A DNA stretch of 64,000 nt from Candidatus Poriferisocius sp. GTDB lineage: Bacteria > Actinomycetota > Acidimicrobiia > Acidimicrobiales > Bin134. The translations under genes were made by a program, and so were the position numbers. The notes below the pieces were generated by a model. That model was not told where the DNA came from and ran no database searches. It saw nothing but the letters and a program-made list of their open reading frames with translations. Positions 19,460-46,382 of the stretch are shown one piece after another. The stretch lies in contig NZ_OZ241836.1 of the NCBI RefSeq assembly GCF_965202595.1, forward strand, positions 215,095 to 279,094, in the 5' to 3' direction. How positions within the stretch are numbered: position 1 is the stretch's first letter; each line of letters begins with the position of its first letter.

Positions 19460-20434
19460 ATGCTGCGCGCCGCCACCCGAGGCAGCGCCTTGGCCCGCTG
19501 GCAAGCAGCCCACGTAGCCGATCTGCTGGGCGATGCCATCGACGTTCAACTGCTTGTTGTGACCACAACCGGCGACCGGCGAGCCGGCGAGCCCATATCG
19601 TCCATCGGCGGCAAGGGGGTGTTCGTCAAGGAGGTGCAGGCCGCGGTGCTGGACGGGCGGGCCGACCTGGCCGTCCACTCGGCCAAGGACCTGCCCGCCA
19701 CCACCCCCGATGGTCTGGTGGTGGCTGCGGTGCCCCCCCGGGCCGATCCTCGGGACGCGCTGGTGGGCAGCCGGTTGGACGACCTTCCCCCCAAAGGGTT
19801 GGTGGCCACCGGCTCGGCCCGCCGCCGGGTTCAGCTCCGCCGGCTCCGCCCCGATCTGCGGTTCGCCGAGTTGCGGGGCAACATTGACACCCGGCTGGCC
19901 AAGGTGCCCGACTACCACGCAGTGATCATGGCCAAAGCCGCCCTGGACCGGCTGGGCGAGCATCCGAGCGTTGTGGCGGCGCTGGGTCGGCGGGGCGAGC
20001 AACCGAGCGTTGTGGCCGCCCTGGAGCGGCTGGGCGAGCAACCGAACGTTGTGGATGTGTTGGGTCGGCGGCGCGAGCAGCCGGCCATCGTGGATGTGTT
20101 GGACTGCGAGGTTATGGTTCCTCAGGTGGGTCAAGGGGCCCTGGCGGTGGAGTGCCGGGAGGGCGATGATCGGGTCCGCTCCCTTCTGGCCGCCATCGAG
20201 GATCCAATGGCCCGGCGAGCGGTGGACGCCGAGCGGGCCTTTCTGTCCACCCTGGGCGGTGATTGCACCTTGCCCGCGGGAGCCCACGCCCGGATACTCG
20301 ACAACCGGGTGGTGATGCGGGCCGTGCTGGCCGGCGGTGTGGACGGCCGCTGCCACACCATGGTTGACGAGGGCAGCGACGGTGAATCCCTGGGCCAAGA
20401 CTTGGCCCGCCGGTTGCTTGCCGCGGCCCGATGA
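19460..20434 (+). CDS. hemC: Hydroxymethylbilane synthase (porphobilinogen deaminase) with a 39-bp x4 in-frame insertion
   Basis: LRAATRGSALARWQA, GKGVFVKE, RGNIDTRL and PQVGQGALAVECR motifs. ATG 19460 is preferred over the maximal ORF start at 19412. Confidence 0.9.
   Translation: MLRAATRGSALARWQAAHVADLLGDAIDVQLLVVTTTGDRRAGEPISSIGGKGVFVKEVQAAVLDGRADLAVHSAKDLPATTPDGLVVAAVPPRADPRDALVGSRLDDLPPKGLVATGSARRRVQLRRLRPDLRFAELRGNIDTRLAKVPDYHAVIMAKAALDRLGEHPSVVAALGRRGEQPSVVAALERLGEQPNVVDVLGRRREQPAIVDVLDCEVMVPQVGQGALAVECREGDDRVRSLLAAIEDPMARRAVDAERAFLSTLGGDCTLPAGAHARILDNRVVMRAVLAGGVDGRCHTMVDEGSDGESLGQDLARRLLAAAR
19955..20110 (+). repeat. In-frame 39-bp (13-aa) tandem repeat x4 inside hemC
   Basis: ggcgagca[t/a]ccgagcgttgtgg at 19955, 19994 and 20033, with a degenerate copy at 20072. 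Protein: GEHPSVVAALGRR GEQPSVVAALERL GEQPNVVDVLGRR REQPAIVDVLD. Confidence 0.9.
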
Positions 20435-20662
20435 CCGTTTATCCACGATGGCAGGGTTGATGGGCATGGCGTTGAACACTCGCCGGTTGCTTGCTGCGGC
20501 CCGATGACCGTTTATCCACGATGGCAGGGTTGATGGGCATGGCGTTGAACACTCGCCGGTTGCTTGCTGCGGCCCGATGACCGTTTATCCACGATGGCAG
20601 GGTTGATGGGCATGGCGTTGAACACCCGCCGGTTGCTTGCTGCGGCCCGATGACCGTTTACC
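20408..20662 (+). repeat. 73-bp tandem repeat (3 units plus a partial one) of the hemC-stop/cobA-start junction, encoding six chained mini-ORFs
   Basis: cgccggttgcttgc at 20408, 20481, 20554 and 20627. Mini-ORFs: 20431-20460, 20460-20507, 20504-20533, 20533-20580, 20577-20606, 20606-20653. They alternate between 9 aa (MTVYPRWQG) and 15 aa (MGMALNTRRLLAAAR), linked by ATGA and TGATG overlaps. Confidence 0.9.
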
Positions 20663-28624: not shown

Positions 28625-29497
28625 TTGCCCGTGGGTATTGCACTCTCCATCGCCATACCGATCATCGTGGTGGCCGCCGCGATCATGCTGGTGGCCGCGG
28701 CCCGCCGCCGGGAGACCATGGCCGCCGAGGGGCACCTGAACCGGGAGACCCGCCGCCGGGATCGCGGCCGGGTGGCCGTCGACGGCGAACCCGTTGCCGG
28801 CCCCACCGGCCGGGAGGTGGAGAGGGCCGCGGTGGTGGCTCGCCAATCCGCCGGCACCGAGGTGGTGGAGGCGGTGGATGCGTCGGTCGAGGAGTGGACC
28901 CCGCCCCATCCCGAGATGGTCGGGGTGAGCCGCCGCCAGTTCCTGAATCGCAGCACGGTGGCCATGATGGGTTTTGGCCTCAGTGGTTTCGGTGCCGCTT
29001 GCATAGCCTTCTTGTGGCCGCCGTTCGTCACCGGTTTCGGTGCCGACGTGAACGTGGGCCTGGTGGACGATGTGAAGTCCCGCATCAAGGATGAGAACGG
29101 TTTCCTTTATATTCCCGAGGGTCGCGCCTGGGTGACGGAGTACCCGCAAGCCGCCTTGCAGAAGGCGCAGAACGTGTACAGCGCTCCGGAGTTGGCGGGG
29201 ATCGAGTCCGGGCTGATTGCCTTGTTCCAGAAGTGCCCCCATCTGGGGTGCCGGGTGCCGTCGTGTTTGACCTCGCAGTGGTTCGAGTGCCCGTGCCACG
29301 GATCCCGCTACAACCAGGTGGGCGAGAAGCGGGGTGGGCCCGCTCCCCGGGGCATGGACAGGTTCGCCATGTCGGTCAACTCCAAGGGGGAGTTCATCAT
29401 CCGCACCGGCACCATTATCCAGGGGCCCCCCATCGGGGTGAACACCACCGGCCAGGAGCCCGAGGGGCCGAGCTGTCTTGGGGGAGCATCGCACTGA
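28625..29497 (+). CDS. Rieske [2Fe-2S] subunit
   Basis: CPHLGC and CPCHGS boxes. Confidence 0.85.
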   Translation: MPVGIALSIAIPIIVVAAAIMLVAAARRRETMAAEGHLNRETRRRDRGRVAVDGEPVAGPTGREVERAAVVARQSAGTEVVEAVDASVEEWTPPHPEMVGVSRRQFLNRSTVAMMGFGLSGFGAACIAFLWPPFVTGFGADVNVGLVDDVKSRIKDENGFLYIPEGRAWVTEYPQAALQKAQNVYSAPELAGIESGLIALFQKCPHLGCRVPSCLTSQWFECPCHGSRYNQVGEKRGGPAPRGMDRFAMSVNSKGEFIIRTGTIIQGPPIGVNTTGQEPEGPSCLGGASH

Positions 29498-29573
29498 TGT
29501 TCGAGTATCCCCGCCGATTCGATGCTCCAACCTGGTGGGGGCCGAGCTGTCTTGGGGGAGCATCGCACTGATG
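29466..29573 (+). repeat. 74-bp duplication of the Rieske-stop / cytochrome-c-start junction, encoding one 24-codon bridging mini-ORF
   Basis: ggccgagctgtcttgggggagcatcgcactgatg at 29466 and 29540. Mini-ORF 29497-29571 (MFEYPRRFDAPTWWGPSCLGGASH*). TGATG overlaps at both ends. Confidence 0.9.
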
Positions 29574-30917
29574 CCCCTGCTTGCCGCTTCTACCCAGCGC
29601 AATCTGGGCATGGCCATCGCGGTTGTCGCCATTGTTGGCTTTGCCATCTACCTCATCTACAACGTGTTGTGGGCGGGTCGGGAGGAGAGGGGATCGGAGC
29701 TGGAGCTGGCCCCCAACCGCAAGCCCTACATGAACGATCAGGAGCTGGAGACCAGAAGGTTGGACCTGGCCCTGGCCGGGGGGCTGGCAACCCTGGTCAT
29801 CATCGGCGTGGCCCTGCCCCTGTACTGGTTGGGGGAGCCGGGCCGCCAGCAGGGCTACGTGGAGGACTCCCGGAGGCAGTTCACCAGCCGGGGGGGCGAG
29901 ATGTTCGAGGAGCAATGCTCGGACTGTCACGGCGGCGGCGGTTTGGGTGGCTCCACCGCCACGACGATCGTGGACGACAGCGGCAATTTCGTGACCCCGG
30001 TCCAGTGGGAGGTTCCCGCGCTCACCACCACGCTGTACCGCTTCTCCGAGGACGAGGTGCGTCACATCCTCAATTACGGCCGCCCCCCCACCCCCATGCA
30101 AGCGTGGGGGGCACCCGGCGGAGGTCCTTTGACCACCCAGCAGGTTGACGAGCTCATCCAGTACATTCAGAGCATCCAGCTCTCCCCCGAGGAGGTGGAG
30201 CAAGAAGTGCTGGACGGCCTCATCCTTCAAGTTCGCGGGGACGTGTTGGAGGCCAACCCCGAGCTGGGGGCGCGATTGGCCGAGGCCAACGATGCGGTGA
30301 GGCAGGCGGGGGCCGACGAGGCCGCGGCCGAGGCTGCCGCCCGCAACCTGGCCGCGGTCGAGCAGGAGATTCGCGAGACCAGCGAGCAGTACATACGTGA
30401 TCTGCCCGGGGTGGATGGGGCATCGGCGGCCCGGGGGGAGCTGCTGTTCAACAACGGGGTTTACGGCTGCGCCCGCTGCCACACCCCGAGGGACTCGTGG
30501 CGGTTCACCGTACCCGAGGAAGCGCCCGGGGAGGATCCGAAGACCTACGAACAGGGTTCCCCCGAGGAGGCCGAGGTCGTCGCCCGGTTGGGGTCGCTGA
30601 TCCCCGAGCGGGAACCCGGCGGGGGTGCGTTCGGCCCCAACCTCACCAACGGGTCCACCAAGCGCCAGTTCGACACCGCCGGTGACCATGCCGGCTTCGT
30701 CGCCGAGGGTTCCCAGGAGGGGAAGGCTTTCGGCAACTTCGGCCAGGGCGACGGTGGGGGTCAGATGCCGGCCTTTGGTGTTTGCGTGGGTGACCGGGAC
30801 TCGGGTGAGCGCAGCCCGATCCACGGTTTCTGCACCTTGACCGACGGCAGTCCCCGACCCGGGATGTTGACCCCCGAACAAATCGACGACATCGTGGCTT
30901 ACGAGCGGGGGTTGTAG
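29571..30917 (+). CDS. Membrane-anchored diheme cytochrome c
   Basis: Two heme motifs (CSDCH, CARCH) and an N-terminal TM helix. The start is set at ATG 29571 (MPLLAAST...), within track ORF 29478..30917. Confidence 0.8.
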   Translation: MPLLAASTQRNLGMAIAVVAIVGFAIYLIYNVLWAGREERGSELELAPNRKPYMNDQELETRRLDLALAGGLATLVIIGVALPLYWLGEPGRQQGYVEDSRRQFTSRGGEMFEEQCSDCHGGGGLGGSTATTIVDDSGNFVTPVQWEVPALTTTLYRFSEDEVRHILNYGRPPTPMQAWGAPGGGPLTTQQVDELIQYIQSIQLSPEEVEQEVLDGLILQVRGDVLEANPELGARLAEANDAVRQAGADEAAAEAAARNLAAVEQEIRETSEQYIRDLPGVDGASAARGELLFNNGVYGCARCHTPRDSWRFTVPEEAPGEDPKTYEQGSPEEAEVVARLGSLIPEREPGGGAFGPNLTNGSTKRQFDTAGDHAGFVAEGSQEGKAFGNFGQGDGGGQMPAFGVCVGDRDSGERSPIHGFCTLTDGSPRPGMLTPEQIDDIVAYERGL

Positions 30918-37166: not shown

Positions 37167-39790
37167 ACCGGCCGGAAACCGTGGTCAACATCACCGTCAA
37201 CAACCGGTCGGTGCAAGCCACCCCCGGAGAGTGGGTGATTGCCGCTGCCGAACGGGCCGGGGTGTACATCCCCCACTTTTGCTACCACCCCCGCATGAAC
37301 TCGGTGGGCATGTGCCGCATGTGCATCGTGGACATCGACACCGGGCGCGGCCCCGCCCTGCAACCCTCCTGCATGGTGCCGGTCAGCGAGGGAATGGTGG
37401 TGGACACCACCTCCGAGCAGACCCGCAAGGCTCAGGAGGGGGTGCTGGAGTTCCTGCTGTTGAACCACCCGCTGGACTGCCCGGTGTGCGACAAGGGCGG
37501 CGAGTGCCCCCTCCAGGACCAAACCATGTCCCACGGCCCCGGCGAGAGCCGCTTGGTGGAGGAGAAGCGCCATTTCGAGAAGCCCATCCCGGTGAACGAT
37601 CTGGTTTATCTGGACCGGGAGCGCTGCATCCTCTGCGATCGCTGCACCCGGTTTGCCGATGAGGTGGCTGGGGACCCGCTCATCACGTTCCAGGATCGGG
37701 GGGATCGGACTCAGGTCAACACCTTCCCCAATCTGCCCTTCTCCTCGTACTTCAGCGGCAACACCGTGCAGATCTGCCCGGTGGGGGCCCTCACCGCTCG
37801 ACCCTACCGGTTCAAGGCCCGCCCCTGGGACCTCACCGAGGTGGAGTCCACCTTCCCCAACCCCATGGGTGATCGGGTGGTGGTGCAGGCCTCTCGCGAC
37901 CAGGTGCTGCGCTACCAGGGAGTGGACAGCGACGCGGTCAACTGGGGGTGGCTCACCGACAAGGATCGGTTCGCATTCGAAGCTCTTGATCGGGGGCCAC
38001 GGCTGACGGTGCCGCTGGTTCGGGGCTCCTCGATGAGTGGCTCCGACCCCGGCGGCCAGGAGCTGGTGGAGTCCTCCTGGCATCAAGCCCTCAACCGGGC
38101 CGCGGAGGCCATCCGGGCTGCGGTGGCCGACCGGGGTCCGGGGTCGGTGGCGATACTGGGTGGGGCCCGCTCGACCAACGAGGACCAGTACGCCTGGGCT
38201 CGCCTGGCCAAGGGGGTTATCGGCACCGACCATGTTGACGCTCAGCTCGACGACGGCCTGCCCGCCGATGTCGTGCTCGGCCTGCCTCGGGCCACCATCA
38301 ATCGGGCCTGCACCCCCGGCGGCACCGTGATCTTGATGGCACCCGATCCCAAGGAGGAACAAGGCACCCTCTACCTGCGGCTCCGCCACGCCGTGACCAA
38401 CGACGGCGTGCAGCTCATCGAGCTGACCCCCCGAGCCACCGGTTTGAGCCATCTCGCCGCCCACCGGCTGCACCACCGCCCCGGTGAGGTTGCCGCGGTG
38501 GCGGCGGCCCTGGTGGGCGGCGATATCGATGTCGGACCCGCCGGTGAGATCGGCGGGGTTCCCGGTCCGGTGCTGGCCGCTGCGGCGGCCGGGCTGGTGG
38601 CCCGAGCCGATCAACCCATAACCGTGATCCTGGGTCGCCCTTCGCTGGCCGAGTCGGCCGCCCCTACGGTGGAGGCCGCCGCCGAACTGTCCAAGCTGGC
38701 CCGGCTGCTCGCCGCGGGCGGGCGACCCGGCATGAGTTTCCTGCCCGTACTGCACCGGGGCAACGTGTTCGGCGCGCTCGACATGGGTCTGGCTCCCGGT
38801 CTGCTGCCGGGCCGGGTGTCCCGGGCCGATGGTGGCTCGGCGGTGGCCGAGTTTTGGGGTTCGTTACCGGCGGACCCGGGCGCTGGGGCCGGCATCGCCA
38901 CCGGCGCTGCCACCGGCGCTGGGGCTGGTGCTGTCACCGGCGCTGCCACCGGCGCTGCCACCGGCGCTGGGGCCGGCGGGATCCTGGAAGCGGCCGCAGG
39001 GGGACGAATCGAGGTGCTGATCCTTTTGGGGGCCGATCCTTTGGGCGACGTTCCCAACGCCAAGCTGGCCGAGACCGCTCTGGCCGGGGTGGGCACCATC
39101 ATTGCCTCCGACTTGTTCCTGAACCCCTCCGCGGCCCGGGCCGACATCGTTTTCCCGGTCACGGCGTTCGGTGAGCATCGGGGTACCCACACCAACCTGG
39201 AGGGTCGGATCACCCGGCAGCGCCAGATTGTCACCCCTCCGGGTACGGCCCGGACCAACTGGTCCATCGCCACCGATCTGGCTCGGTTGCTGGGCACCGA
39301 TTTCGGGTTTGCCGACCCCGAGGCGGTGTGGTCCGAGATCACCCGGGTGGCCCCGTCGCACCGGGACCTGACCCTGGAGGCCGTGGAAGCCGAAACCGAT
39401 GGCGTGGTGGTTGCCGGTAGCTCCATCGTGTTCACCCCGCCCGGCGAACCGGTGCCGGTACCCCCGGCCGATGCCTACGGCCTGCGGTTGGTGTCGTCGC
39501 GCCGCATGTACGACCGGGGCACGCTGCTTCAGCACTCCCCCTCCCTGGCCGGTTTGGCTCCCACGGCGGTGCTGGCCGTGAACCCCTCCGACTTTCAGGG
39601 TGTCGGGGTGGATCCCGGTACCGAGGTTCAGGTCGTCTCCCCGGTCGGTGAGATGACCGTGCCGCTGGTGGTCGACCCCGGTGTGCCCCGAGGGACCGCA
39701 GCTTTTGGCTACAACCACCCCGACCGCGATGTACGAGAACTCATCGACCCGGCCGCGGTGGTTACCGATGTGAGGATTCAGACCCGATGA
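37163..39790 (+). CDS. nuoG: NADH-quinone oxidoreductase subunit G
   Basis: N-terminal 2Fe-2S/4Fe-4S Cys clusters (CYHPRMNSVGMCRMC, HPLDCPVCDKGGECPLQD, CILCDRC) and a molybdopterin-like domain. A GA/T-rich low-complexity insertion lies around 38870-38990. Confidence 0.95.
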   Translation: MNRPETVVNITVNNRSVQATPGEWVIAAAERAGVYIPHFCYHPRMNSVGMCRMCIVDIDTGRGPALQPSCMVPVSEGMVVDTTSEQTRKAQEGVLEFLLLNHPLDCPVCDKGGECPLQDQTMSHGPGESRLVEEKRHFEKPIPVNDLVYLDRERCILCDRCTRFADEVAGDPLITFQDRGDRTQVNTFPNLPFSSYFSGNTVQICPVGALTARPYRFKARPWDLTEVESTFPNPMGDRVVVQASRDQVLRYQGVDSDAVNWGWLTDKDRFAFEALDRGPRLTVPLVRGSSMSGSDPGGQELVESSWHQALNRAAEAIRAAVADRGPGSVAILGGARSTNEDQYAWARLAKGVIGTDHVDAQLDDGLPADVVLGLPRATINRACTPGGTVILMAPDPKEEQGTLYLRLRHAVTNDGVQLIELTPRATGLSHLAAHRLHHRPGEVAAVAAALVGGDIDVGPAGEIGGVPGPVLAAAAAGLVARADQPITVILGRPSLAESAAPTVEAAAELSKLARLLAAGGRPGMSFLPVLHRGNVFGALDMGLAPGLLPGRVSRADGGSAVAEFWGSLPADPGAGAGIATGAATGAGAGAVTGAATGAATGAGAGGILEAAAGGRIEVLILLGADPLGDVPNAKLAETALAGVGTIIASDLFLNPSAARADIVFPVTAFGEHRGTHTNLEGRITRQRQIVTPPGTARTNWSIATDLARLLGTDFGFADPEAVWSEITRVAPSHRDLTLEAVEAETDGVVVAGSSIVFTPPGEPVPVPPADAYGLRLVSSRRMYDRGTLLQHSPSLAGLAPTAVLAVNPSDFQGVGVDPGTEVQVVSPVGEMTVPLVVDPGVPRGTAAFGYNHPDRDVRELIDPAAVVTDVRIQTR

Positions 39791-39840
39791 CGGCTGACCC
39801 GGCTGCGGTGGTTACCGATGTGAGGATCCGGACCCGATGA
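39746..39840 (+). repeat. 50-bp duplication of the nuoG/nuoH junction with a 17-codon bridging mini-ORF
   Basis: gacccggc.gcggtggttaccgatgtgaggat.c.gacccgatga at 39746 and 39796. Mini-ORF 39787-39840 (MTADPAAVVTDVRIRTR*). ATGA overlaps at both ends. Confidence 0.9.
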
Positions 39841-41063
39841 ACGTCGCCCCGGCGCTTTTGGGTCCGACCGTGTTCGGCCTCGACCCGCTCTACATCGGGG
39901 GGGTGGGCCTGGCCGAGGTTCTCATCACCCTGCTCAAGGTGGGGGTGGCTTTTGCTCTTCTGCTGATGGCGGTCATGCTGATGATCTGGTTCGAACGCAA
40001 GTTGATCGGCGACATGCAGAACCGTATCGGGCCTGCGCTGGCCGGGCCGTTCGGCATCTTCCAGACCCTGGCCGACGGGATCAAGCTGTTCTTCAAGGAG
40101 GACCTGATCCCCGACCGCTCCGACCGGTTGGTGTTCAAGCTGGCCCCCTACCTGTCGCTGGTGCCTGCCTTTTTGGTGTTCGCCGTGATCCCCGTGGGCG
40201 GCGATTTCAGCGGTGGCAACGGGCGGGTCAGCCTGTTCGGTCACGAGACCTTCCTCCAGGTGTCCGACCCGCCGGTGGGCATCCTGCTGGTGCTGGCCAT
40301 GTCGTCGGTGGCCGTTTACGGGGTGATGCTGGCCGGGTGGTCGTCGGGCTCCAAGTATCCCCTGCTGGCGTCGGTGCGGGCCTCGGCCCAGATGGTTTCC
40401 TACGAGGCCGCACTGGGTTTGTCGCTGGCCGCGGTGCTGCTGAAATCGGGCAGCCTGTCCACCCACCTGATCGTTTCCGAGCAGTCGGTGTGGAACTGGA
40501 ACCTGTGGGTTACATGGGTGGTGCCCATGGTCGTCTTCTTGATCGCTGCCACCGCCGAACTGAACCGGCCCCCCTTCGACCTGGTGGAGGCCGAGCAGGA
40601 GCTGGTCGGCGGCTTCCACACCGAGTACAGCTCCATCCGGTTCGCCCTGTTCTACCTGGCCGAGTTCATGAACACCATCACGATGTCGGCCATCGTGGTG
40701 ACCCTGTTCCTGGGCGGGCCCAACGGTCCCGACTTCACCTCGGTGGGCTGGCTGTCGGGGTTGCTGTGGTTCTTGGGCAAGCTGCTGATCCTGCTGTTCA
40801 CCTTTGTGTGGTTGCGGGCCACCCTGCCCCGCTTCCGCTACGACCAGCTCATGGACCTGGGTTGGAAATTGCTCATCCCCCTGTCGCTGGGGTGGCTGCT
40901 GGTGCTGGCCTCCTACGACGTGGCCGGGGATCGGGGCTGGAACCGCTTCGCCACCGTGCTGGCGGTGATGGCGGTGATGGCCGCTCTGGCCGGGTTGTTG
41001 AGCCTGGCCCTGCGAAATGCCCGCCGCCACCGGGAGTTGGATCCCCAAGGTGGTTTTGCCTGA
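39837..41063 (+). CDS. nuoH: NADH-quinone oxidoreductase subunit H
   Basis: WFERKLIGDMQNRIGP and EAEQELVGGFHTEYS motifs. Confidence 0.95.
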   Translation: MNVAPALLGPTVFGLDPLYIGGVGLAEVLITLLKVGVAFALLLMAVMLMIWFERKLIGDMQNRIGPALAGPFGIFQTLADGIKLFFKEDLIPDRSDRLVFKLAPYLSLVPAFLVFAVIPVGGDFSGGNGRVSLFGHETFLQVSDPPVGILLVLAMSSVAVYGVMLAGWSSGSKYPLLASVRASAQMVSYEAALGLSLAAVLLKSGSLSTHLIVSEQSVWNWNLWVTWVVPMVVFLIAATAELNRPPFDLVEAEQELVGGFHTEYSSIRFALFYLAEFMNTITMSAIVVTLFLGGPNGPDFTSVGWLSGLLWFLGKLLILLFTFVWLRATLPRFRYDQLMDLGWKLLIPLSLGWLLVLASYDVAGDRGWNRFATVLAVMAVMAALAGLLSLALRNARRHRELDPQGGFA

Positions 41064-41130
41064 TGGGATACCTTGAGTTCACCCGATGGTGGCTGGATCC
41101 CCAAGGTGGTTTTGCCTGATGGGATACCTT
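41039..41130 (+). repeat. 56-bp duplication of the nuoH/nuoI junction with an 18-codon bridging mini-ORF
   Basis: ggatccccaaggtggttttgcctgatgggatacctt at 41039 and 41095. Mini-ORF 41063-41119 (MGYLEFTRWWLDPQGGFA*). TGATG overlaps at both ends. Confidence 0.9.
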
Positions 41131-41775
41131 CAGGGCTTTGCCGTCACCCTTCGCAAGTTGTTCAAGGGCACCGAGACCGGTCGGGTGGTCACCAGCCAGT
41201 ACCCCGACGAGAAGCGTCCCAAACCCGAGCGCTTCCACGGCCGCCACGTGCTGAACCGCTACGAGGACGGCATGGAGAAGTGCATCGGGTGCGAGCTGTG
41301 CGCCGGGGTCTGCCCGGCCCGGTGCATTTATGTTCGGGGGGCCGACAACCAGCCCGATGATCCGGTTTCGCCCGGCGAGCGATACGGCTATGTCTACGAG
41401 ATCAACTACCTGCGGTGCATCCACTGCGACCTGTGCGTGGAGGCCTGCCCCACCGAGGCCATAACCGAGTCGAAACTGTTCGAGTTCTCGTTCACCGACC
41501 GGGCCGATGCCATCTACACCAAGGACGAGCTGGTGGTGGATGACGATGGCCGCCCCCAGCAGCTTCCCTGGGAACACTGGAATCCCGGTGACGATCAGCA
41601 CACCTCGGCCTGGGTCCGGGCCACATCCCCCTCGGGGCGGGCCGACTACGAGGGTCGGGTGGCCTGGTCGGGCGAGCTGGGCTACGGCATCCGCGCCCCC
41701 GAGCGGGGTCAGTCGGCCGGCGACGAGTCCCCCGCCGATTATGACCAGGAAGATCTTGGCGGGGGTCACCACTGA
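41119..41775 (+). CDS. nuoI: NADH-quinone oxidoreductase subunit I
   Basis: CIGCELCAGVCP and CIHCDLCVEACP motifs. The start is at the second junction copy (MGYLQGFAVTLRK). Confidence 0.95.
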   Translation: MGYLQGFAVTLRKLFKGTETGRVVTSQYPDEKRPKPERFHGRHVLNRYEDGMEKCIGCELCAGVCPARCIYVRGADNQPDDPVSPGERYGYVYEINYLRCIHCDLCVEACPTEAITESKLFEFSFTDRADAIYTKDELVVDDDGRPQQLPWEHWNPGDDQHTSAWVRATSPSGRADYEGRVAWSGELGYGIRAPERGQSAGDESPADYDQEDLGGGHH

Positions 41776-41818
41776 TGGAGACAGCGGTTCGCAAAGCCCA
41801 TGGCGGGGGTCACCACTG

Positions 41819-41826
<8 letters not shown>
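41758..41826 (+). repeat. 44-bp duplication of the nuoI/nuoJ junction with a 14-codon bridging mini-ORF
   Basis: ggcgggggtcaccactgatggagac at 41758 and 41802. Mini-ORF 41775-41819 (METAVRKAHGGGHH*). Confidence 0.9.
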
Positions 41827-42356
<530 letters not shown>

Positions 42357-42370
<14 letters not shown>

Positions 42371-42461
42371 TGGTCACCGCATTCTGGTATGTCCGTTGCC
42401 GGCCACCGCGGGGGCTGCGACCGGCCCCCGGTGAAGACTGATGGTCACCGCATCCTGGTAT
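42357..42461 (+). repeat. 71-bp duplication of the nuoJ/nuoK junction with a 23-codon bridging mini-ORF
   Basis: ccggtgaagactgatggtcaccgcat.ctggtat at 42357 and 42428. Mini-ORF 42370-42441 (MVTAFWYVRCRPPRGLRPAPGED*). Confidence 0.9.
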
Positions 42462-42743
42462 CTGGTGCTGGCTGGCGCGCTGTTCACCATCGGGGCGGTG
42501 GGCCTGCTGGTGCGGCGGAACCCGCTGATCATGTTCATGTGCGTGGAGCTGATGCTCAACGCGGTCAACCTCACCTTCATCACCTTCGGGCGGGAGCTGA
42601 ATGACATCGGGGGGCAGGTGTCGGTGTTCTTCGTGCTGGTGGTGGCCGCGGCCGAGGTGGTGGTGGGTCTGGCCATCGTGGTGGCCATCAAGCGCCACCA
42701 ACCCCGGGCCACCGCCGACGACCTTGCGGCCCTGAAGGGTTAG
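42441..42743 (+). CDS. nuoK: NADH-quinone oxidoreductase subunit K
   Basis: 100 aa: LVLAGALFTIGAVGLLVRRNPLIMFMCVELMLNAVNL. Confidence 0.95.
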   Translation: MVTASWYLVLAGALFTIGAVGLLVRRNPLIMFMCVELMLNAVNLTFITFGRELNDIGGQVSVFFVLVVAAAEVVVGLAIVVAIKRHQPRATADDLAALKG

Positions 42744-42843
42744 TGGGTACATGAGCATGCTCGTGGATGCTGAAGGGTTAGTGGGTACATGAGCACCCTC
42801 GTGGATGCTGAAGGGTTAGTGGGTACATGAGCACGCTCGTGGA
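42732..42843 (+). repeat. 38-bp tandem repeat x3 of the nuoK/nuoL junction with two chained 13-codon mini-ORFs
   Basis: ctgaagggttagtgggtacatgagca..ctcgtggat at 42732, 42770 and 42808. Mini-ORFs 42751-42792 (MSMLVDAEGLVGT*) and 42789-42830 (MSTLVDAEGLVGT*), ATGA-chained to the nuoL ATG at 42827. Confidence 0.9.
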
Positions 42844-44722
42844 TCTGGTGTGGCTGATCCCCGCCTTCCCGCTGGCCGGGGTTCTGATCCTCGTGGTTTC
42901 GGGGCGCAGGCTGGGCGAACCCCGGGCCGGCTGGCTGGCCACCGCCATGATGGGCGGATCGTTCGTGACCACGCTGCTGGTGTTCATCGGGCTCCTGGGC
43001 CACGACGGTGAGGAGCGTCAAAAGGTGCTCACCCTGTTCGAGTGGGTACCCGCGGGGCGGCTGGCGGTGGACATCGGCTTTCTGGCCGACCCGCTGGCCA
43101 TCACCATGGCCTTGTTCGTGACCGGGGTCGGAGCTCTCATCCACCTTTACTCCATCGGCTACATGCACGGCGACGAGGGGTTCTCCCGGTTCTTCGTGTA
43201 CCTCAACCTGTTCGCCTTCTCCATGCTCATGCTGGTGCTGGGCGACAACCTCCTGCTCACCTTCCTGGGCTGGGAGGGGGTGGGGGCCTGCTCCTACCTG
43301 CTCATCTCGTTCTGGTTCACCGACGAAACCAACGCCACCGCGGGCAAGAAGGCGTTCGTCACCAACCGGGTGGGCGACTGGGGCTTCTTGGTGGCCATGT
43401 TCCTGGCGTTCTTGACCTTCGGGTCGCTCCAGTACGGCGAGATCTTCTACGACCTGGAGTCCAACGGGGTGGCCGCTGGCACCGCGTCGGCCATCGTGGT
43501 GCTGCTGCTGGTGGGCGCGGCCGGCAAATCAGCCCAGTTCCCGCTGCACATCTGGCTGCCCGATGCCATGGCCGGCCCCACCCCGGTGTCGGCGCTCATT
43601 CACGCCGCCACCATGGTCACCGCCGGGGTTTACCTGCTGATCCGCATGAACCCGATCATTGCCGAGGCCCACGGGTGGGTGCCCGACCTGATCATGTGGT
43701 TGGGTCTGGGGACCGCGCTGATGGCCGCCACCATCGCGGTGGCCCAGAACGACATCAAGAAGGTGCTGGCCTACTCCACGGTCAGCCAGCTCGGGTTCAT
43801 GTTCGTGGCGGTGGGGTCGGGGGCCTACGTGGCCGCCATCTTCCACATGGTAACCCACGCCTTTTTCAAGGCCCTCCTGTTCCTGGGGGCCGGGTCGGTG
43901 ATCCACGCCATGCACGGCGATCAGGATCTTCGCCGCTACGGCGGTCTGGCCCGATTTCTGCCCGTTACCTCGATGACCTTCGTGGCCGGCTGGCTGGCCA
44001 TTGCCGGCGTTCCCCCGTTCTCCGGTTTCTGGTCCAAGGACGAGATCCTGGTTTACGCCTATGGCGAGAACAAGCTGCTGTGGCTGCTGCTGCTGGTGAC
44101 CGCGGTGCTCACCGCCTTCTACATGACCCGGCTGGTGCTCATGACGTTCTTCGGCCCCCGCCGCTGGGCGGGCGAAGCAGCCGATCCCCACGAGTCGCCG
44201 TGGACGATGACCGCTCCCCTGGTGGTTCTGGCCGCCCTGGCCGTGGTGGCCGGGGTGGTGAACCTGCCGTTTGCCTCCAGCACCCACTTCTTGGGGAACT
44301 GGCTGGATCCGGCCTTTTTCGGCAATGCCTCTCACCTGAGCCTCGGCGGGGGCACCAAATGGGTGCTGGCCGCCGTTGCCATCGTGGGCAGCCTTCTGGG
44401 AGTCTCGGCCGGGGCCGCGGTGTACGCCCGGCGCCGGGTGGATCCGGCTCGCCTCGAGCACCCCTTCCTGGCCCGGGCCTGGCGCATCGATGAGCTGGTC
44501 ACCGCCTTCATGGGTGGTCCCGGCCGCCGGGCGTTCGAGCGCACCACCCGGTTTGATGAGCAGGTGGTGGACGGCGCGGTCAACGCCACCGGCGCTTTGA
44601 TCCGCCGGGCCGGAACCAAACTGCGGGTGTCGCAAACCGGCCTGGTGCGCAGTTACGCCCTGGGTATCGCCGCCGGGGCAGTGGCACTTTTGGCCTGGTT
44701 CCTGTCGCGGGCGGGGTTGTGA
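42827..44722 (+). CDS. nuoL: NADH-quinone oxidoreductase subunit L
   Basis: 631 aa, with antiporter-like motifs (WEGVGACSYLLISFW, KSAQFPLHIWLPDAMAGPTPVSALIHAATMVTAG). Confidence 0.95.
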   Translation: MSTLVDLVWLIPAFPLAGVLILVVSGRRLGEPRAGWLATAMMGGSFVTTLLVFIGLLGHDGEERQKVLTLFEWVPAGRLAVDIGFLADPLAITMALFVTGVGALIHLYSIGYMHGDEGFSRFFVYLNLFAFSMLMLVLGDNLLLTFLGWEGVGACSYLLISFWFTDETNATAGKKAFVTNRVGDWGFLVAMFLAFLTFGSLQYGEIFYDLESNGVAAGTASAIVVLLLVGAAGKSAQFPLHIWLPDAMAGPTPVSALIHAATMVTAGVYLLIRMNPIIAEAHGWVPDLIMWLGLGTALMAATIAVAQNDIKKVLAYSTVSQLGFMFVAVGSGAYVAAIFHMVTHAFFKALLFLGAGSVIHAMHGDQDLRRYGGLARFLPVTSMTFVAGWLAIAGVPPFSGFWSKDEILVYAYGENKLLWLLLLVTAVLTAFYMTRLVLMTFFGPRRWAGEAADPHESPWTMTAPLVVLAALAVVAGVVNLPFASSTHFLGNWLDPAFFGNASHLSLGGGTKWVLAAVAIVGSLLGVSAGAAVYARRRVDPARLEHPFLARAWRIDELVTAFMGGPGRRAFERTTRFDEQVVDGAVNATGALIRRAGTKLRVSQTGLVRSYALGIAAGAVALLAWFLSRAGL

Positions 44723-44795
44723 TGTTCCGTAGCCGATCATCTGGCCCATTCCGGCAACTTTTGGCCTGGTTCCTGTCGCGGGCGGGGTTGTGATG
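44686..44795 (+). repeat. 71-bp duplication of the nuoL/nuoM junction with a 23-codon bridging mini-ORF
   Basis: acttttggcctggttcctgtcgcgggcggggttgtgatg at 44686 and 44757. Mini-ORF 44722-44793 (MFRSRSSGPFRQLLAWFLSRAGL*). Confidence 0.9.
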
Positions 44796-46382
44796 GACGG
44801 ATCCAGCATTTTGGCGGCCATAATCTTTTTGCCCCTGGTGGGTGCGGTTGCCCTCGCGCTGGTGGCCCCGTCCCGCTCGACGGTGCTCAAACCGGTGGCA
44901 GTGGCCACCTCGTCGGCCACCGGGGCCCTCACCCTCTGGCTGATGGCCGCCTTCGACAGCGGTGACAGCGGCTTCCAGTTCACCCAGGTGGCCGGGTGGA
45001 TCGATTCGGCCGGCATCTCCTGGCATGTGGGGGTGGACGGCATCTCGCTGTTCCTGGTCGTGCTCACCGGGGTGCTGTTCCCCATTGCCATCGTGGCCTG
45101 TGACCCACCCCATAACGCCAAGGCCTACTACGTCTGGCTGCTGGTGCTGGAGACCGGCTGCCTCGGGGTGTTCCTGGCGCTGGATCTGGTGCTGTTCTTC
45201 CTGTTCTTCGAGATCGTGCTGGTGCCGATGTACTTCCTCATCGGCTCCTGGGGTCACGACAACCGCCGCTACGCCGCCACCAAGTTCTTCCTCTTCACCA
45301 TGCTGGGCTCGGCCCTGATGCTGGTGGGAATGCTCACCCTGGCTCTGCTCACCGCCCACCACACCGGCAACGCCGTCACGTTCAACGTCGTAGAGCTGGC
45401 CCAAAGCGCCGGTGAGCTGCCCACCATCACCGCCCGCTGGGTGTTCCTGTCGTTCGTTTTGGCCTTTGCGGTGAAGGTTCCCATGTTCCCGGTGCATACC
45501 TGGTTGCCCGATGCCCACACCGAGGCCCCCACCGCCGGCTCGGTGATCCTGGCCGGGGTCATGCTCAAGCTGGGTACCTACGGTCTGGTCCGTTTCGGCC
45601 TGTACCTGTTTCCCGAGGCCACCCGCTACTTCGCTCCGCTCATGTTCACCCTGGGGGTGATCGGCATCCTCTACGGCGCGGTGGTGGCCACCATGCAGCG
45701 TGACCTGAAGCGCCTGGTGGCCTACTCATCGGTGGCCCACCTCGGTTTCATCGTGCTGGGCATATTCGCCCTCAACACCGAGGGACTGGAGGGCGGCCTG
45801 CTCCAGATGGTCAACCACGGGCTGTCCACCGGGGCGTTGTTCCTGCTGGTGGGGTTCATCTACGAGCGTCGCCACACCCGCCGGATCTCCGAGCTGGTGG
45901 GTCTGCAAAAGGCCGCCCCGGTTCTGGCCGCGGTGTTCACCGTGGTGATGCTGTCGTCGGTGGGGCTCCCCGGGCTCAACGGCTTCGTCGGCGAGTTCCT
46001 CATCCTGACCGGGGCGTTCGTGGCTCACCGCTGGTGGGCGGTGGTGGCCACCGCCGGGGTGATTCTGGCCGCGCTCTACCTGTTGTGGGCCTACCAGAGG
46101 GTGTTTCACGGCACCCCCGACGGCAAGAACGCGTCCACGCCCGACCTCACATGGCAGGAGAAGCTGGTGATGCTGCCGCTGGTGGGCCTCATCGTGTTCT
46201 TGGGGGTGTACCCCAAACCGGTGATAGAGAGGATGGAACCAGCGGTGAACGCCCTGATCGAGCACATGGAACGGGTCGAGGGGTTCGAGTCGCCCACGGT
46301 GGGTGATCGACCCGGCGGCAGCTTCGAGGAGCTGCGCGACCTCCGGGTGGATCACGATGACACCGGGGAGGGTCACCACTGA
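44790..46382 (+). CDS. nuoM: NADH-quinone oxidoreductase subunit M
   Basis: FAVKVPMFPVHTWLPDAHTEAPTAGSVILAGVMLKLGTYG. Start is GTG 44790 or ATG 44793. Confidence 0.95.
   Translation: MMDGSSILAAIIFLPLVGAVALALVAPSRSTVLKPVAVATSSATGALTLWLMAAFDSGDSGFQFTQVAGWIDSAGISWHVGVDGISLFLVVLTGVLFPIAIVACDPPHNAKAYYVWLLVLETGCLGVFLALDLVLFFLFFEIVLVPMYFLIGSWGHDNRRYAATKFFLFTMLGSALMLVGMLTLALLTAHHTGNAVTFNVVELAQSAGELPTITARWVFLSFVLAFAVKVPMFPVHTWLPDAHTEAPTAGSVILAGVMLKLGTYGLVRFGLYLFPEATRYFAPLMFTLGVIGILYGAVVATMQRDLKRLVAYSSVAHLGFIVLGIFALNTEGLEGGLLQMVNHGLSTGALFLLVGFIYERRHTRRISELVGLQKAAPVLAAVFTVVMLSSVGLPGLNGFVGEFLILTGAFVAHRWWAVVATAGVILAALYLLWAYQRVFHGTPDGKNASTPDLTWQEKLVMLPLVGLIVFLGVYPKPVIERMEPAVNALIEHMERVEGFESPTVGDRPGGSFEELRDLRVDHDDTGEGHH

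Follow-up and report, generated by a model that had tools for sequence, protein, structure and literature searches.

A 71-nt repeat-filler-repeat unit at the nuoL/nuoM junction of 'Candidatus Poriferisocius': a probable insertion scar with a predicted bridging reading frame

Short units and short reading frames that stand between neighbouring genes have been described in several systems. The mycobacterial interspersed repetitive unit (MIRU) loci of Mycobacterium (Supply et al. 1997), as far as they are summarised in PMC12548453, are units of tens of bases at the junctions of co-oriented operon genes; each carries a small open reading frame (ORF) that overlaps its neighbours at either end, expression is barely disturbed, and the tandem copy number can vary. 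It has been proposed for MIRUs that such a short ORF may serve solely to deliver ribosomes to the next gene (PMC12548453). In the synthetic bicistronic designs cited in the same source, a short leader cistron terminates at the start codon of its target gene. Termination-reinitiation coupling (Huber et al. 2019, 2023; PMC6728339, PMC10666635) is enriched among the subunits of complexes and collapses at an intergenic distance of ~20 nucleotides (nt) (PMC10666635). A different kind of short unit results from off-target spacer integration by Cas1-Cas2, recorded in vivo and termed 'spontaneous CRISPR loci generation' (Nivala et al. 2018, as cited in PMC7054753 and PMC6698737), CRISPR standing for clusters of regularly interspaced short palindromic repeats. 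Here we describe the junction between the complex I genes nuoL and nuoM in a 64,000-nt stretch of a 'Candidatus Poriferisocius' genome (assembly GCF_965202595.1, contig NZ_OZ241836.1, positions 215,095 to 279,094; hereafter the window), where a 71-nt unit, made of a copied piece of the junction and a filler of unrelated DNA, forms a mini-ORF that bridges the two genes.

The MIRU loci are the closest described analogue of this bridge. Within what the summary reports of them, the two have in common the size of the unit, its place at a co-oriented operon junction, the overlaps of the small ORF with its neighbours and a copy number that can vary, since the sister species of our genome has two units at nuoL/nuoM. 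MIRUs, however, form a dispersed family with a shared consensus, whereas here each unit is locus-specific and consists of a copy of the local junction and a unique filler; also, the host is an uncultured sponge symbiont of the Acidimicrobiia. As in termination-reinitiation coupling, there is a TGATG overlap at either end of the bridge, and the products of the two genes belong to one complex. The mini-ORF resembles the leader of a bicistronic design in ending on the start codon of the gene that follows. Unlike such a leader, it would be neither designed nor evolved for that role; it would have arisen as a side effect of an insertion by which the overlap chanced to be restored, and which survived for that reason. 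The nuoL/nuoM feature probably works like a MIRU or a bicistronic leader and is not a member of a repeat family.

The unit contains a perfect direct repeat of 39 nt (ACTTTTGGCCTGGTTCCTGTCGCGGGCGGGGTTGTGATG), identical at 39 of 39 positions and with a spacing of 71 nt; in none of 100 shuffled sequences did this repeat match twice. Both flanking genes are intact, as the first copy still closes nuoL and the second keeps the start codon of nuoM and the 36 nt 5' of it unchanged. The A of the nuoL stop codon is the first base of the mini-ORF start codon, and the A of the mini-ORF stop codon is in turn the first base of the nuoM start codon. The final 11 residues of the mini-ORF are, on translation, those of the NuoL C-terminus (...AVALLAWFLSRAGL*). 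The identical 39-nt core, the extent of the mini-ORF and the 11-residue copy of NuoL had all been put forward in the original prediction, and they are borne out directly by the sequence and its translation. The coordinates of these features are collected in Table 1.

An independent contig from the European Nucleotide Archive (ENA) metagenome assembly ERZ26693861 (ctg136893, 110 kb; hereafter L206) comes from another assembly and another strain and encodes exactly the same NuoM protein. Over 6,590 nt, 15 substitutions and one indel separate it from the window (99.76% identity), and it has the identical 71-nt unit in the same single copy number. The identities of nuoL and nuoM rest on the Pfam matches of the same proteins in this contig. 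Resequencing had been proposed earlier as a check on whether the core is really present twice; the independent contig contains both copies, and the two-copy unit is thus upheld. As the source of the window is a metagenome-assembled genome (MAG), an artefact of assembly or sequencing was considered. It has practically no probability given the identical unit in a contig of another assembly and strain and the analogous inserts at the same site in related species.

The 32-nt filler (TTCCGTAGCCGATCATCTGGCCCATTCCGGCA) was compared by local alignment, against shuffled sequences, with the 5' end of nuoM, the 3' end of nuoL, the insert found at this junction in the sister species (G008) and the insert common to six further species, and its similarity to all of them is at chance level. 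No other copy of it is found in the 3.1-Mb genome, where it is single-copy, nor is it derived from the local flanks on either strand, and its 26-nt core (CCGTAGCCGATCATCTGGCCCATTCC) has no exact match in IMG/VR or in the JGI metagenome contigs; nor did a degenerate pattern of the junction match in metagenome contigs. Two short matches of the filler on contig C2 were dismissed as chance motifs, and a decayed tandem duplication is rejected on the chance-level similarity to all four tested sequences. A filler at random identity beside a core identical at 39/39 positions is what marks a fresh duplication of the target on either side of inserted, unrelated DNA.

The original prediction had read the same unit differently: the 32 nt were called weakly similar to the 5' end of nuoM, and a 71-nt tandem duplication across the junction was proposed, in which the part derived from nuoM diverged while conversion or selection held the core. 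Local alignment with the 5' end of nuoM is no better than with shuffles (p=0.84; ungapped identity 8/32), so that the weak similarity fails; the conversion that was built on it is not supported, as the filler is without detectable homology and the site is empty in most relatives. A history of this kind would require a conversion tract with an abrupt edge, the adjacent 39 nt being largely unconstrained yet 100% identical, and the sister species is without this filler altogether. On its side are some loci which share repeat boundaries between the window genome (G000) and G008, with repeats identical within each species and diverged between them, and a patch in the mini-ORF of species G046 that resembles the 3' end of nuoL (17/28, p=0.0014). 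We regard it as very improbable for nuoL/nuoM. Gene conversion may have acted at some other loci and in other species, as in the G046 patch and the species-specific, internally identical repeats, and is unnecessary here.

We consider it probable, whichever enzyme was involved, that the 71-nt unit is a recent insertion scar which was selected for its phase and is accommodated by stop/start coupling. Approximately 36-39 nt of the original nuoL/nuoM junction would have been duplicated, with 32-35 nt of DNA unrelated to the locus set between the copies, and the unit would belong to a genome-wide class made by a length-measuring process of duplicative insertion. A ribosome that restarts at the copied ATG would read the filler and the second repeat copy and stop at the TGA which overlaps the true nuoM ATG, since a unit length of 2 mod 3 makes a restarted ribosome terminate on the nuoM start overlap. 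Termination-reinitiation coupling would thus be kept through a translated bridge of 23 codons, the peptide itself being functionless, and the insertion would be tolerated because it formed a tiny ORF that should pass ribosomes from gene to gene. Inserts of other lengths would uncouple the genes at junctions of this kind and be purged by selection. Under this account of a phase-selected scar, what is selected is how long the unit is and how it is phased, and not the core sequence. The recency of the unit is indicated by the 39/39 identity of its repeats and by the dissimilar insert of G008; a strain diverged by 0.24% (L206) already carries it. It weighs against the account that translation of the bridge, and the dependence of nuoM on it, are predictions from sequence. 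The phase rule described below supports indirectly that nuoM translation may depend on translation upstream of it, and, taken together with the failure of coupling at ~20 nt (PMC10666635), it supports the survival only of inserts that rebuild the hand-over through a translated bridge.

Table 1. Features of the nuoL/nuoM junction, the other duplicated nuo junctions and the CRISPR-Cas locus (window coordinates unless another contig is named)
Feature	Location	Strand	Description
nuoL	42827-44722	+	631 aa, C-terminus intact; ORF list and Pfam PF00662/PF00361 on the 99.76%-identical contig L206
Repeat copy 1 (X1)	44686-44724	+	Final 37 nt of nuoL including TGA, and the overlapping ATG; original junction; single-copy in relatives
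TGATG overlap, nuoL/mini-ORF	44720-44724	+	nuoL TGA at 44720-44722
Bridging mini-ORF	44722-44793	+	23 codons and stop, MFRSRSSGPFRQLLAWFLSRAGL*
Filler (U)	44725-44756	+	32 nt of unrelated DNA, TTCCGTAGCCGATCATCTGGCCCATTCCGGCA
Repeat copy 2 (X2)	44757-44795	+	39/39 identical to X1; provides the 11 C-terminal codons and TGA of the mini-ORF, a G-rich upstream context and the nuoM ATG
TGATG overlap, mini-ORF/nuoM	44791-44795	+	mini-ORF TGA at 44791-44793, nuoM ATG at 44793-44795
nuoM	44793-46382	+	529 aa, normal N-terminus MDGSSILAAIIFLPL...; PF00361 on the identical protein in L206
nuoG/H unit	39755-39840		50 nt
nuoH/I unit	41038-41130		56 nt
nuoI/J unit	41757-41826		44 nt
nuoJ/K unit	42357-42463		71 nt; bridging mini-ORF 42370-42441, 23 aa
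nuoK/L unit	42732-42835		38 nt x 3
nuoL/M unit	44686-44795		71 nt
Type I-G CRISPR-Cas locus	contig C1 of G000, 2234444-2249000 (outside the window)		Cas2, Cas4-Cas1, Cas3, GSU0054, GSU0053 and array

The distribution of inserts at this junction was surveyed across the genus; both the nuoL and the nuoM flank were recovered in 35 of the 40 'Candidatus Poriferisocius' species genomes (sponge-associated MAGs of the Acidimicrobiia). The majority (27/35) keep a plain T[GA]ATG junction in which the core occurs once. In the sister species, G008, a perfect 62-nt unit (MVDLLLPVRSSHVLCSRAGL) stands twice, so that a 21-nt core is present three times, and the insert is unlike that of G000. The window and L206 have one unit each, as against the two units of a different 62-nt sequence in G008, where the locus is likely a variable number tandem repeat. 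A homologous 62-nt insert is common to six species (G011, G003, G046, G052, G048 and G015) and contains a 20-codon ORF (MPAIAIPVA...), whose ATG lies on the nuoL stop and which has a TAATG overlap with nuoM. All inserts at the junction (71, 62 and 2 x 62 nt) belong to the class of unit lengths that are 2 mod 3. A tree built from the flanking 2.6 kb places G000 next to G008 as its sister (100/100); the six carriers are scattered in it, with at least five state changes; their monophyly is rejected (approximately unbiased test, p=1e-6, for a group defined after inspection of the tree). This scatter indicates either several precise losses or exchange between species, and precise loss of an insert is easy via recombination between the two copies. 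Concerning a derivation of the six-species insert from an old duplication of the junction, only the patch of G046 resembles the 3' end of nuoL and the other five sequences do not; the patch itself suggests a local conversion from the neighbouring gene end.

The mini-ORF common to the six species has 13, 12 and 11 variable columns at codon positions 1, 2 and 3, and two species may disagree at as many as 14 of its 19 residues; its length is never altered and no stop is gained. Equal variation at all codon positions in a kept frame points to constraint on a correctly phased ORF and not on the peptide. The same data bear on the possibility that the junction encodes a functional micro-protein, for instance a small membrane peptide associated with complex I, to which the location inside the nuo operon, the hydrophobic NuoL tail copied in the C-terminal half of the peptide and the 20-codon ORF kept at the same place in six other species would all be suited. 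The peptide of G000 is not conserved even in the sister species, the ORF of the six species lacks a third-position excess and varies as described, and the 27 species with a plain junction have no ORF there, which makes a micro-protein highly unlikely.

Duplication is also found at the other nuo junctions. Six consecutive nuo junctions in the window are duplicated (Table 1). The unit is 2 mod 3 at every one of them and includes a copied overlap, TGATG or ATGA, and the duplications give chained bridging mini-ORFs. The phase was counted genome-wide in units whose copied stretch includes a stop/start overlap with one long ORF upstream and another downstream (n=113): the period is 2 mod 3 in 68, 0 mod 3 in 30 and 1 mod 3 in 15 (binomial p=5e-9). 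A period of 71 is seen 22 times among these junction-copying units, as against twice each for periods of 72 and 73. The reading of the nuoL/nuoM unit as a bridging ORF, which the original prediction had offered, fares well here: the ORF is phased from the nuoL stop to the nuoM start, and the 2 mod 3 rule holds at the nuo junctions, in other species and genome-wide. At the nuoJ/K junction, L206 has one extra base in a C-run just 5' of the nuoK start (window 42437, L206 ~74), by which the unit becomes 72 nt long and the mini-ORF is fused in frame to nuoK, called there with 124 aa instead of 100 (a 24-residue N-terminal extension). The extra base may be a real phase variant or a homopolymer error at low coverage. 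Units of this kind mislead gene callers, as the nuoK extension in L206 illustrates.

Genome-wide, ~1,700 local pairs of perfect repeats were detected, and their spacing is bimodal (30-42 and 65-75 nt). After extension these gave 371 repeat-filler-repeat units, among them the nuoL/nuoM unit, and ~430 plain tandem arrays of 30-42 nt, mostly of two to three copies. When the units are counted by the lengths of repeat (X) and filler (U), 50 of the 371 fall in the block X=35-38 and U=34-37, over a diffuse background. Apparent repeat lengths of 36, 37, 38 and 39 nt are seen in 21, 14, 6 and 3 units, which fits a duplication of 36 nt with chance matches; for X=39, 3 units are observed and 2.2 expected under 36 nt plus chance extension. 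As the counts fit a true length of 36 nt, the nuoL/nuoM unit (39+32) is compatible with 36+35. Clean empty sites are present in G008 for several units of G000, for example at C1:2583650 (X37/U37 against a single 37-nt X) and C1:1515344, and indicate that the units of G000 are insertions with target duplication. At some orthologous junctions, for example at C1:2733198, C1:276970 and C1:1105731 of G000, the units of both species have the same repeat boundaries with unrelated fillers, the repeats being identical within each species and diverged between the two; this points to turnover of the filler or to recurrent hits at one site.

For 81 of the 83 fillers of the class the genome contains no second copy; no mutual similarity was found among the fillers, nor a template within +-400 nt on either strand. 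The remaining two copy ~33-35 nt of distant chromosomal DNA, so at least some fillers are captured fragments. A dispersed mobile repeat that targets start codons, that is, a true element of the MIRU, repetitive extragenic palindromic (REP) or miniature inverted-repeat transposable element (MITE) type, would account for the MIRU-like architecture, a short unit with an internal ORF that overlaps the flanking genes (PMC12548453). Such an element should leave shared sequence, of which there is none: the nuoL/nuoM filler is single-copy, the 83 fillers are mutually unrelated and the repeats copy the local junction. We give this explanation next to no weight.

Concerning the process behind this class, the genome contains a type I-G CRISPR-Cas locus, and the geometry of its array is similar to that of the units. 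The array has 75 repeats of 36 nt (GTTCGGGGGTTCAATAGAGCCCCCCTTCATTGAAGC, transcribed strand) and spacers of 35-39 nt (mode 36-37; 7 of 74 are 35 nt long), and an intact adaptation module of Cas2 (99 aa) and a Cas4-Cas1 fusion (546 aa) lies beside it. The presence of Cas3, GSU0054 and GSU0053 as well assigns the system to type I-G. At nuoL/nuoM the duplication is 39 nt against the 36-nt CRISPR repeat, and the filler is 32 nt, or 35 nt if the duplication is 36 nt, against spacers of 35-39 nt. A related Cas4/1-Cas2, of type I-U, is reported to integrate mainly 36-bp spacers (PMC6547450). The best single candidate for the origin of the unit, put forward tentatively, is that the resident type I-G Cas4/1-Cas2 integrated a fragment of spacer size outside the array; 36 nt would have been duplicated and ~35 nt inserted, the identity over 39 nt being those 36 with three chance or selected matches. 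Its wider form, held with slightly more reserve, is that Cas4/1-Cas2 integrates chromosome-wide in the lineage of G000 and G008, that scars are kept if frames or the hand-over are preserved, and that nuoL/nuoM is a domesticated neo-CRISPR unit. A duplication of about the length of a CRISPR repeat, flanking a non-local insert of about the length of a spacer, is what the units would share with the known off-array events. As far as PMC7054753 and PMC6698737 present them, those events are rare and come from Escherichia coli over-producing Cas1-Cas2 or from in vitro work, at repeat-like sites, whereas here dozens to hundreds of fixed natural events would be needed, at sites that are not repeat-like, in one lineage and with many tandem duplications alongside.

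Several results weigh against a Cas origin. Identity between the repeats of the units (36-37 nt) and the CRISPR repeat is 10.8/36, against 10.7/36 for random 36-mers of the genome, and no positional motif is present at the repeat boundaries. No protospacer or protospacer-adjacent motif was found for any filler in INPHARED, the genus genomes or the spacers, nor for the core of the nuoL/nuoM filler in IMG/VR or the JGI contigs. The 62-nt inserts of G008 and the six species do not fit the 71-76-nt period of the arrays in these species. Spaced scars number 0, 0 and 1-2 per 400 kb in G010, G048 and G015, which have the same I-G Cas1, and two repeat-filler-repeat units are still found in 400 kb of the cas-less G022. 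Short local duplications of every kind occur in G000 and G008 at a density 5-15 times higher, and neither the ~430 pure tandem arrays of 30-42 nt nor the diffuse X and U sizes are products of canonical spacer integration.

Among the cultured phages of INPHARED, neither fillers nor real spacers matched, which makes this comparison uninformative. Between the fillers and the real spacers of G000, G008, G046, G015, G048, G052 and G011 only chance-level matches were found (12-15 nt perfect, or 17-22 nt at 91-95%). In a comparison of concatenated fillers and spacers with the 40 genus genomes, which is of low sensitivity, with seven candidates scored per genome, one real spacer matched G008 and G005 and one self-derived filler matched G052 and G017. 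Two of the 74 real spacers match their own genome, one perfectly over 37 nt (C1:2849915-2849951) and one over 18 nt; the self-matching spacer has no TTN motif directly beside its chromosomal match.

The density of local repeats was compared between species in equal samples of 400 kb, a small set in which the presence of Cas is confounded with lineage. G000 and G008 have 164 and 385 local repeats, respectively. The cas1-positive G015, G010 and G048 have 38, 27 and 58 (those of G048 being mostly repeats of leucine-rich repeat genes), and the cas1-negative G022 and G047 have 27 and 11. Units in the block of 35-38/34-37 nt number 3 in G000, 5 in G008, 1 in G015 and 0 in each of G010, G048, G022 and G047. 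Since the density is high in G000 and G008 yet low in other cas1-positive genomes, the load appears to be a property of the lineage and not of the possession of CRISPR. Two options follow: integration is deregulated by some additional factor specific to the lineage, or a different process operates whose characteristic length is ~36 nt.

The second option corresponds to a Cas-independent process of short duplication, hyperactive in this lineage, which would make both tandem and spaced units, the match to CRISPR geometry being a coincidence. Candidates are replication slippage, unequal exchange, and staggered breaks that are filled and joined with a captured filler by non-homologous end joining; the reading of the bridging ORF and its phase would be unchanged. 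We rate this at somewhat below an even chance. It agrees with the joint rise of tandem and spaced units in G000 and G008 and their rarity in the other sampled genomes, cas1-positive or cas-less, with the peak of the tandem class itself at 33-36 nt, with repeats that are unlike the CRISPR repeat, with the many units in which the filler is 12-30 nt or the repeat 20-55 nt long, and with the two spaced units of G022, which has no cas1. The tight cluster of 36-nt duplications with 35-36 nt of non-local DNA is harder to reconcile with it, as known routes of slippage and end joining do not give such a cluster. Also, the two fillers that copy distant loci over 33-35 nt are of spacer size, and the fraction of fillers with a match in their own genome (2/83) resembles that of the real spacers (2/74).

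If the account of a phase-selected scar is true, nuoL/nuoM is a natural experiment on translational coupling. Within one genus, this essential complex I junction would have taken at least two hits, probably three, and every surviving insert would be in the single length class (2 mod 3) that allows a throw-away mini-ORF to carry ribosomes from nuoL to nuoM. The six consecutive nuo junctions of this genome would be repeats of that solution. This would be direct evolutionary evidence of selection on termination-reinitiation coupling in operons of multi-subunit complexes. We rank the question of origin as mattering more than that of coupling. If Cas4/1-Cas2 made the scar, we would know of no earlier natural genome that owes a major part of its structural mutations to off-array integration; the case would illustrate how CRISPR-like loci might newly form in the wild, and adaptation by CRISPR would rank as a significant mutational force on the operon junctions of a natural symbiont.

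Two more units of CRISPR-like size are present in the window, at 20423-20660 (period 73, ~2.8 copies) and at 29464-29575 (period 74, with a 36-nt repeat ending in CTGATG). In the 400-kb sample of G008, a period of 111 nt recurs in 71 repeat pairs and suggests a large gene or gene family with 37-residue repeats.

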